Positions 16,125 through 18,358 are shown, numbered from the stretch's first letter. The stretch: DNA of 64,000 nucleotides from a virus (IMGVR_UViG_3300009619_000001:673-64672); one strand, 5' to 3'. Notes: generated by a model from the sequence alone, not told the origin. Numbers and translations: made by a program.

Positions 16125-16660
16125 TAAACGTCTTTTAGTCTAACTTCTCTATTTTCTAGAAAGCTAAGTGTTTGCTCACCACTAATAGTCTTTCTCTCAC
16201 CCCTTCGCTCTATTGCTTCTAGCAAAACGGTACGAGTACCTAGTAGTTTTTCAATACCGATCATAACTTTCTGAAGGTCTTCAGCAGTTTCTTGATCTAA
16301 GTGCCACTCATTAATAAGTGTAGTGTATTGATCTATCTTTTTATTAAACGCCTCTAACTGATCGTCAAGAGGATCTCTTTGTAGTTTGCGATACTTATCT
16401 ATAGCCGCCTTCATCAAAGGATGTTTAGTGTCAGCCCATTCAGGCTTCCCAGTTAAATCCGTGCATATCTGCCGAACCCTATCCTTTTCGTTTAAGTATC
16501 TATATGGTGAATCGTAGTCTTGACTTAAAGCAACAAACCTCATTCCTTTCTGTCCTAACTTCTTATCCTTTAAAACCTTTTGAAACTCTGGAACGCCTAG
16601 CACCCCATTGTCTTCATCAGTAACACTCTCTCCTTTCTTACTAATCTTTAATAGATACAT
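16124..16660 (-). CDS. Probable terminase small subunit
   Basis: 178 aa helical protein overlapping the TerL start, the usual TerS position. Confidence 0.55.
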   Translation of the reverse strand: MYLLKISKKGESVTDEDNGVLGVPEFQKVLKDKKLGQKGMRFVALSQDYDSPYRYLNEKDRVRQICTDLTGKPEWADTKHPLMKAAIDKYRKLQRDPLDDQLEAFNKKIDQYTTLINEWHLDQETAEDLQKVMIGIEKLLGTRTVLLEAIERRGERKTISGEQTLSFLENREVRLKDV

Positions 16661-16989
16661 TATTTTTTTTCTAGTTTATACTTTAACATAAACATACCAA
16701 CATCAATAGTACTATCCATACCGATAGGTATCTCTACCTCTTCGTAGTCACCAGTCTGTTCGTTGTAATAAACATAGTTTAAGCTATCTACTATAGGATC
16801 ATTAAAGTACATATTGCGATCTAATATCTTGTAGTCATTATCTATTAACCAATTGTCAATCTCATTATCCATCGCTAGGTCTGGGGAGAACACGGAAAAG
16901 TCGTCAGTCTCAAACTCTAACACAAGAGAGTCTAATAACTCATCTCTGTAAATATCCCCATAAGGAGTTTGTATATATGATTTTACCAT
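16660..16989 (-). CDS. Hypothetical acidic protein
   Basis: 109 aa ORF translationally coupled to the downstream gene. Confidence 0.6.
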   Translation of the reverse strand: MVKSYIQTPYGDIYRDELLDSLVLEFETDDFSVFSPDLAMDNEIDNWLIDNDYKILDRNMYFNDPIVDSLNYVYYNEQTGDYEEVEIPIGMDSTIDVGMFMLKYKLEKK

Positions 16990-17003
16990 TTTTATTTATT
17001 TAG

Positions 17004-17152
17004 CTGTAGGGGAAGGATTCGAACCTCCACGTAGTAGTTAGCTAGAGAACATTAGTTGCAACTTGGTGGTCAACCCCTTTTATCCTAAAGTTTATCCATT
17101 TATCTACACCTCCGAGACAGGGAGGCATGTCTGCCTATTTCATCACCCTACA
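17004..17152 (-). tRNA. Atypical tRNA-like RNA: class II (Leu/Ser-like) body, GTC (Asp) anticodon, 80-nt variable region
   Basis: Acceptor TGTAGGG/CCCTACA; D arm ATG-AAATAGGCAGA-CAT; anticodon arm CCTCC-CTGTCTC-GGAGG; T arm GGAGG-TTCGAAT-CCTTC; discriminator G followed by CTA rather than CCA. Confidence 0.7.
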
Positions 17153-18031: not shown

Positions 18032-18358
18032 GCCTGCCATCAACAACTTTAGATTCTGTCTTGCTCGCTGTGTGTTAACACTACGATTAGTATGCAGCTG
18101 GGCAGGCGGAAAGTTGTAAAGAACAACTGCGCTATCTCGTATGGAGCAAAATATCTGATCCAAATACATTCCTGCATAAGTCGTCAACAAACCGTTGGAA
18201 GTACAAATGTAGGAAATATATTTATCAATTCAAATCATGTTAAAAACTAAGCGCAAAGAATTTTGCGGCTCGACATTCCTGTTATGGTAAGATCTATCTA
18301 ACGATAGTCTGTAAAGAAGTACTAAGCTATCTCTCGGTTCGACTCCGAGTACAGGATC
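18032..18358 (+). ncRNA. Candidate structured RNA ending in a tRNA-like T arm/acceptor module
   Basis: GCCTGCC(18032)/GGCAGGC(18101) multi-branch stem; AGTTG/CAACT hairpin; TTCCTGCAT/ATGTAGGAA stem; CTCGG-TTCGACT-CCGAG T arm; TCCTGT(18277)/ACAGGA(18351). Confidence 0.45.

Follow-up and report, generated by a model that had tools for sequence, protein, structure and literature searches.

The strong determinants of AspRS are G73, G34, U35, C36 and C38 together with the pair G2-C71, and bacterial tRNA-Asp strictly conserves G1-C72 (PMC9976931). In the indirect pathway of ND-AspRS and GatCAB, tRNA-Asn is also an aspartate-receiving tRNA; its U1-A72 is the determinant of GatCAB, and G1-C72 and U20a of tRNA-Asp are the antideterminants (PMC9976931). 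The combination of G73 with a long variable arm suits recognition by SerRS only (PMC7609411). Long arms have been combined with G73 and with the anticodons of other amino acids in allo-tRNAs and aptamer-tagged tRNAs, from which it appears that long arms are tolerable (PMC5389517, PMC7590224); engineered aptamer-carrying tRNAs can be translationally active (PMC7590224). Moreover, some phage tRNAs have anticodon loops unlike those of the host, which are proposed to evade anticodon nucleases (PMC10264068).

In our literature searches we found no description of a giant-armed tRNA-like RNA of the aspartate type. Here we describe such an RNA from a window of 64,000 nt, the whole stretch of DNA that was analysed, in a phage (64.7 kb, 96% complete) whose portal protein groups with crAss-like phages, the known hosts of which are Bacteroidota. 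The family to which it belongs, the giant-armed aspartate-type tRNA-like RNAs from Bacteroidota, is undescribed, absent from Rfam and missed by tRNA finders, and is hence left out of annotations.

Structure and setting of the phage gene

The gene lies on the minus strand at 17003..17152 and measures 150 nt up to C74. The four arms that the preliminary description had seen, pairing fully or with a single G-U, are present when the minus strand is read from 17152 to 17004, and the cloverleaf is standard (7-bp acceptor stem, 5-bp T stem, T loop UUCRANY, G18 G19). The 5' strand of the acceptor stem, UGUAGGG (17146..17152, with U1 and G2), forms seven Watson-Crick pairs with CCCUACA at 17005-17011. 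It is followed by U8 and G9 and then by a D arm of the tRNA-Leu type (17127..17143), in which the 3-bp stem AUG/CAU closes an 11-nt loop, AAAUAGGCAGA, with G18 G19 and four bases 3' of G19. The anticodon arm (17109..17125) reads CCUCC / CUGUCUC / GGAGG and places GUC at 17118-17116, U37 at 17115 and C38 at 17114. Between it and the T arm stand the 80 nt of the giant variable arm (17029..17108), closed by UGUAG/CUACG at the position first proposed. This arm contains a closing stem V1 (GUAG/CUAC), a bulge AUAAA, a second stem V2 (UGG/CUA), two conserved internal-loop motifs, GGAUAAAC (17097-17090) and UAGCUAAC (17044-17037), a helix V3 (AGGAUA/UGUUCU, 17086-17081 with 17051-17046), a hairpin GGGGUUGACCACC (17077-17065) and a palindromic hairpin GUUGCAAC (17062-17055). 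The T arm (17012..17028) reads GGAGG / UUCGAAU / CCUUC with one G-U, and the 3' strand of the acceptor stem, CCCUACA, ends the gene with G73 (17004) and C74 (17003) at 17003..17011, so that the discriminator is followed by CUA.

Detection by standard tools, which had been suggested as a check, did not succeed. Whether run in standard, intron, relaxed or tmRNA mode, ARAGORN made no call on the element, and Rfam 15 gave no match at the gathering threshold or at E values up to 10. Nor did the element match a catalogued tRNA-like RNA such as tmRNA or YrlA in the ARAGORN tmRNA mode or in Rfam 15 at E up to 10. The single sequence folded with a stability no greater than that of its shuffles (z = 0.15). 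Since the detectors were silent and the fold was unexceptional, the reality of the element was not decidable from the window alone, and the evidence for its structure is comparative, not thermodynamic.

This evidence came from the relatives described below. In plain MAFFT alignments of 13 and 27 sequences, unfitted and read against a hand-written structure, 98.3% and 97.2% of cells, respectively, formed standard pairs, and the value fell to 39-54% when the partners were slid. Compensatory changes were found in 12 pairs with 13 sequences and in 18 of the 39 pairs with 27, and 0 of 500 shuffles reached the observed values; the covariance across homologs that the preliminary description had asked about is thus present in unfitted alignments. 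A 49-copy alignment fitted to the model (27 giant-armed phage copies, 2 short-armed and 20 chromosomal) had such changes in 26 of 39 pairs. All arms covary, the 80-nt insert included. Covariation affects acceptor pairs 3-7, the D-stem pair 11-25 (U-A to C-G in 5 of 27 sequences), three of the five anticodon-stem pairs in the 27-sequence alignment and four of the five T-stem pairs, and the near relative L016 has its T stem fully swapped to GCACG/CGUGC.

Within the giant arm, compensatory pairs numbered two in V1 and seven in the long arm helix on the 27-sequence MAFFT alignment, and three in V1 and ten in the arm helices on the fitted 49-sequence alignment. V1 occurs as GUAG/CUAC, GGUG/CACC, GAGG/CCUU and GUGG/CCAC, the bulge that follows it has 4-5 nt, and V2 occurs as UGG/CUA, CGG/CCG, AGG/CCU, UCU/AGA and ACU/AGU. 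The two internal-loop strings are near-invariant, with one pair inside that swaps from C-G to G-C; V3 reads AGGAUA/UGUYCU across the family, and the tip carries a GG-UUGA-CC(A)CC hairpin together with a small palindromic one whose sequence varies. In pattern scans of viral contigs the conserved core of the arm occurred only within this tRNA frame. Comparative analysis confirmed the element as a real, conserved RNA gene, and by the same comparison the insert is best read as a long, irregular and conserved variable arm, neither an intron nor a mobile insert. We picture the arm as a predicted rod of roughly 25 bp.

Two other foldings or uses of the arm were considered and rejected. RNAalifold paired GGCAG of the D loop with CUGUY of the arm; against this, the D stem itself shows a U-A to C-G exchange, and it is AGGAUA with which the arm strand covaries. 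A codon mimic, in which GAC of the invariant arm loop UUGACCA would pair with the RNA's own GUC, was discarded as the hairpin is absent in Marinoscillum, L231, L239, L240/L243 and L242.

The minus-strand structural block opens with an ORF of 109 aa (16660..16989) whose ATG lies 14 nt after C74. We found no terminator-like site between the two and no sigma-70-type promoter, and the RNA and this ORF are probably co-transcribed. The RNA had been described as the first of the late operon, which is plausible here but not general in the family. In relatives the RNA often lies 10-20 nt before an ATG or is directly followed by the next tRNA, and in several other phages it stands within tRNA arrays. 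About 80 nt upstream of its 5' end, in the divergent intergenic region, TATCTTTG (17241-17234, minus strand) matches TAnnTTTG, the -7 promoter motif of Bacteroides. The early region of the window holds a second tRNA-like element (18277-18358, plus strand) whose acceptor-like stem is TCCTGT/ACAGGA and whose tail is T-CTA; its T arm, CTCGG/TTCGACT/CCGAG, is perfect, and an internal loop, CUGUAAA, is of the Tyr type. ARAGORN made no call on it, and it was rejected as a family member as the family model finds nothing there.

A family shared by phages and Bacteroidota chromosomes

In a DNA search of phage records the element, but not its flanks, matched a 636-kb uncultured phage (LR756504) at 76% identity; the copy there stands in a tRNA array and has the orientation of the tRNAs. 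By pattern scans, viral and metagenome contigs gave 27 distinct giant-armed phage copies of 142-162 nt, and two short-armed relatives of 91 nt, which have the same core and loop with an ordinary 7-bp class II arm and are called tRNA-Asp(gtc) by ARAGORN. Carrier phages range from 65 kb to 636 kb. A covariance model built on the 27 phage copies (R1) scored the element at 158.9 bits (E = 1e-36), its sole match within the window.

The same model found the RNA in chromosomes. In an even sample of 151 genomes across the phylum Bacteroidota, 14 carried matches of 77-138 bits and 110-213 nt, so that the family is present in about 10% of the sampled genomes. Further chromosomal copies were found in Marinoscillum furvescens (three in tandem) and in the Bacteroidetes MAG G003 and in G047, and 20 chromosomal copies were collected. 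Total length across the family runs from 91 to 213 nt, with arm length graded continuously. The bacterial RNA is a stand-alone gene, at times in tandem without an ORF nearby. A 15-mer scan of cellular genomes gave at least 120 matches, none inside a tRNA among the matches listed; it missed the chromosomal family in part because the chromosomal stems differ. A gapped, N-rich pattern scan gave one match, attributable to chance.

A maximum-likelihood tree built on 126 shared columns intersperses the phage copies with the chromosomal ones, and its supported branches force at least two transfers between hosts and phages. The best reading of the phage copy is that of a captured, probably host-derived auxiliary gene.

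Several neighbouring observations deserve mention. In Marinoscillum furvescens DSM 4134 the three tandem copies (L227:5489-8260; G001:C13) lie 0.7-1.6 kb apart and encode CCA. The interior of this array has no ORF of 70 aa or more except one 89-aa frame without a Pfam match; one flank holds an AsnC-type gene and a SufBCD operon, and an AMP-binding enzyme is encoded further downstream. In the 636-kb phage, two 88-nt tRNAs adjoin the giant-armed RNA (L001:2250-2337 and L001:2343-2430), called Asn(GUU) and Thr(UGU) by ARAGORN, and these unite long stem-loop variable arms of class II shape with class I anticodons. The giant-armed locus of another viral contig (L218) has an 87-nt tRNA called SeC(tca) by ARAGORN. 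About 25 viral contigs of crAss size (~100 kb) share a hairpin CACCUCC-CUGUCUC-GGAGGGG, found around a match to CTCCCTGTCTCGGAG; this hairpin matches the anticodon arm of the element (L004, L005, L007, L012, L023, L024, L027-L030, L032, L037-L039, L041, L044 and L045 are among them). It sits in a longer conserved region that is apparently non-coding and has no Rfam match.

Identity elements and the AsnC-type regulator

Across the family, U1-A72, G2-C71, G73 and C74 are invariant (49 of 49 copies). Every copy with a readable loop has U35, C36 and C38; G34 is retained in all but one genome, and GUC in all but three copies, two of which, both of genome G139, read UUC; in the third (L241) the loop context is uncertain. 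The window copy and all 29 distinct phage copies share an identical U33-G34-U35-C36-U37-C38. Position 37, for which an unusual pyrimidine next to a GTC anticodon had been reported, is indeed U in the window copy and U or C in every member, and position 32 varies. U33 is universal in decoding tRNAs; the window copy has it, as does every phage copy, but four bacterial genomes (G003 among them) have C or G instead. This pattern is what would be expected of an RNA that needs recognition by AspRS and for which recognition by the ribosome is dispensable. The G139 copies (L240:1501-1611 and L240:1723-1832) have the loop CUUUCUC with its Glu-type anticodon, and the shortest arms of the chromosomal set (110-111 nt total).

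Like bacterial tRNA-Asp, the family has a cloverleaf with GUC, C38, G73, G2-C71, a standard T loop, G18 G19 and a gene tail G73-C74-N. It differs by U1-A72 in place of G1-C72, a pyrimidine in place of A37, A10 in place of G10 (a minor Asp element), an 80-nt arm in place of the short class I variable loop of 5 nt, a class II D arm and a weaker-looking T stem, in which the G51-C63 and C50-G64 of host tRNA-Asp give way to A51-U63 and, often, to G50-U64. Five carrier genomes were seen to encode a separate, ordinary tRNA-Asp with G1-C72, G10, A37, U20a and a short variable loop, so the pyrimidine 37 and U1-A72 mark a paralog, not a lineage. The genes of these ordinary tRNAs end in G73-C74 followed by A or T, as the element does. 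Thus the G-CTA end that had been noted as departing from CCA is real, but a non-CCA tail is normal for the phylum. The family tail reads C-N-A, and a full CCA is encoded in L051, L212, L215, Marinoscillum and L242.

The body is of the class II type: the D stem has 3 bp, the D loop is enlarged, and the variable arm, a stem-loop, begins one base past the anticodon stem and ends two bases before the T stem. U8 G9, the 11-nt D loop and the place of G18 G19 are as in bacterial tRNA-Leu. Moreover, of the tRNAs encoded alongside, it is tRNA-Leu whose D arms come closest, and the best R1 match outside the family, among those inspected, is a tRNA-Leu(GAG); the Leu/Ser-type body with an Asp anticodon of the preliminary description therefore holds. 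The differences from class II tRNAs are G73 against the A73 of tRNA-Leu and tRNA-Tyr, the anticodon GUC, and an arm 4-10 times longer with conserved internal loops. By sequence, then, the family unites a tRNA-Leu-type class II body, an aspartate identity set, U1-A72, a pyrimidine 37 and a long structured arm, and the window copy displays its conserved core, the N-N-G-U-C-Y-C loop, U1-A72, G73-C74 and the arm-base motif RAUAAA / CUAA. The view that this is not an ordinary tRNA is upheld by the failure of the detectors, the conserved arm, and a first pair, position 37, D arm and variable arm that all differ from tRNA-Asp.

Allo-tRNAs and aptamer-tagged tRNAs (PMC5389517, PMC7590224) have Ser identity and an acceptor/T geometry of 8/4 or 9/3, whereas the family has a 7/5 geometry, Asp determinants and a far longer arm that is conserved in sequence. 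The nuclease-evading phage tRNAs (PMC10264068) resemble it as phage tRNA-like genes with an anticodon loop unlike the host's; in our family, in contrast, this departure is also found in chromosomal copies, which makes it a family trait and not a phage adaptation. A class I tRNA-Asp with G1-C72, an encoded CCA and the same CUGUCUC loop is the sole tRNA-Asp of a 17-tRNA phage array (L021:2783-2858, minus strand), and U37 alone is therefore no proof of non-decoding. The same array holds a 91-nt tRNA-Ile(UAU) with a long arm (L021:1323-1413, minus strand).

The gene divergently upstream of the RNA in Marinoscillum encodes an Lrp/AsnC protein; among the NCBIfam models AsnC is by a wide margin its best match (174.7 bits, full length, below the equivalog cut-off). 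Of the 14 carriers, 9 have an ortholog of this protein (57-70% identity) encoded on the opposite strand, 120-250 nt upstream of the RNA. The ortholog group is found in 16 of the 151 genomes, namely the 14 carriers, G047 and G021, and all other proteins are at most 47% identical. Among these regulator-positive genomes 15 of 16 have the RNA, and the two genes are adjacent in 10; in G047 the RNA copy beside the regulator is cut by the contig end. No second RNA copy was found beside the detached regulators, and the regulator was the sole conserved protein partner found at the RNA loci. The synthetase neighbour in G075 is LysRS, and this adjacency was set aside as incidental. The AsnC-type regulator is a feature of the context, not of the RNA, and no AsnC-family protein was found in the phage genome.

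Possible roles of the RNA

Our best explanation, to which we give about an even chance, is a functional RNA that would be processed like a tRNA, charged by AspRS and used off the ribosome, and whose phage copy would derive from the host. The RNA would be transcribed with the structural or late block, excised by RNase P and a 3' endonuclease of the host, completed to CCA and folded into an L shape with a rod-like extra arm, and host AspRS would load aspartate onto it. It would be no normal decoder; off the ribosome it would take part in an amino-acid-linked process, either as a carrier or adaptor of aminoacyl groups or as an RNA that binds AspRS; in bacteria this process would be controlled by the dedicated AsnC-type regulator, and the phage copy would be a captured host gene expressed without it. 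From sequence comparison we infer each of these points separately: processing from a tail like that of host tRNA-Asp genes and from the location in tRNA arrays of other phages, charging from the retained AspRS determinants, and exclusion from decoding from the pyrimidine 37 of all copies, the loss of U33 in four bacterial genomes, U1-A72 and the separate canonical tRNA-Asp. Against this stand the U33 of all phage copies and the location of several in tRNA arrays, with which decoding by the phage versions is possible, as well as A10, the want of a conserved partner beyond the regulator, and the regulator's absence from the phage, which leaves the benefit to the phage unexplained.

A narrower form of this explanation is tentative, and we consider it rather unlikely as stated. 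The family would be a non-ribosomal aminoacyl carrier on a tRNA-Leu-derived scaffold, loaded by AspRS, and the ester would be used by a reader of U1-A72 such as GatCAB or by a transferase that docks on the arm. The pyrimidine 37, the weak T stem and the arm would keep the RNA off the ribosome, and Bacteroidota phages would steal the gene repeatedly.

A sub-case that the best explanation allows, and that is not specifically supported, is an Asp-to-Asn carrier, on which GatCAB would amidate the aspartate off the ribosome by way of U1-A72 and whose phage copy would boost asparagine supply. We regard it as unlikely. In E. coli, asnA is divergent beside asnC, and the RNA occupies that divergent position beside a regulator closest to true AsnC. 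U1-A72 is present in all copies, GatB in 14 of 14 carriers, and phage proteins contain 6.9% Asn. However, GatB is found in 126 of the 151 genomes regardless of the RNA and is thus permissive only, AsnB-type synthetases occur in 5 of 5 carriers and 5 of 5 non-carriers tested, and AsnA, with 4 of 151 genomes and no carrier, is too rare to inform. The 11-nt D loop has extra bases past G19, at odds with the small D loop associated with GatCAB (PMC9976931), so that the family, which also has GUC instead of the GUU of tRNA-Asn and is apparently no decoder, would carry a predicted antideterminant. No gatCAB gene was found beside the RNA at the examined loci, and the single synthetase neighbour is the LysRS mentioned above.

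It is also conceivable, but in our estimate decidedly unlikely, that the RNA is a working tRNA-Asp variant, a phage decoder of GAY codons whose altered loop and bulky arm would resist a tRNA-cleaving defence of the host. The phage copies have U33, GUC and a perfect core, several stand in tRNA arrays, and Asp accounts for 7.1% of phage codons. Such loop changes are proposed to serve nuclease evasion (PMC10264068), tRNAs with GUN anticodons are targets of colicin E5 (PMC1635277), and long-arm aptamer-tagged tRNAs can translate (PMC7590224). The same RNA is nevertheless chromosomal in bacteria with a normal tRNA-Asp of their own, and bacterial copies lose U33, with one genome losing G34, while position 37 is never a purine and U1-A72 is fixed. 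By the tuning rules of EF-Tu, the A51-U63 and frequent G50-U64 of the T stem predict that the factor would bind an Asp ester of this RNA weakly. A mere shield would, moreover, have no need of conserved arm motifs.

An uncharged decoy or sponge, titrating a binder of tRNA-Asp-like loops such as AspRS, a nuclease, a defence sensor or the TGT that inserts queuine, appears quite improbable. In its favour, the UGU motif is conserved along with the Asp determinants, phages have captured the gene repeatedly, and there are precedents of defence-neutralising phage tRNAs (PMC11464382, PMC11555353). However, the invariant G73 and C74, the perfect acceptor stem and the CCA encoded in several copies suggest that the 3' end is used, and a chromosomal gene under an amino-acid-type regulator points to metabolism rather than defence. 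The chromosomal family and its regulator thus shift the odds away from a phage-specific decoy. The first interpretation is supported in part: the RNA is not an ordinary tRNA and has a Leu/Ser-type body, the decoy, the mis-acylating tRNA and the tRNA-scaffolded ncRNA that it offered as functions are candidates, and the oddity of its tail did not stand.

We consider it very improbable that the tRNA shape is a punctuation mark that would direct cleavage of the late polycistronic transcript by RNase P and RNase Z. The 14-nt distance to the ATG without a terminator, the 10-20 nt in many relatives and the second tRNA-like element of the early region would fit, but a processing signal needs no conserved anticodon loop, discriminator or arm motifs, and the bacterial RNA stands alone. 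Finally, a tRNA-Asp interrupted by an intron or inserted element, whose removal would restore a standard tRNA, is hardly credible even though a stem closes the insert and detector failure is due to it alone, since it sits at the variable-arm position and not at the intron site of group I or bulge-helix-bulge introns, short-armed relatives hold a normal class II arm there, lengths are graded, the interior covaries and has invariant motifs, the core of the arm occurs in viral contigs within this tRNA frame only, no Rfam intron or ribozyme model matches the element, and excision would leave U1-A72, U37 and the Leu-type D arm.

To return to the best explanation, an aspartate-charged RNA acting off the ribosome, tRNA-shaped RNAs outside decoding are few, and each of them opened a field. 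The family joins two codes that are normally apart, the determinants of AspRS and a U1-A72 pair read by an amidotransferase, and its repeated capture suggests that it is useful to phages during infection. Marinoscillum furvescens DSM 4134, a cultured carrier with three copies, makes the function testable. If the carrier reading is true, the family would represent a kind of tRNA-dependent metabolism that is new and has a regulator of its own, and its phage copies the first RNA auxiliary metabolic gene in a phage.
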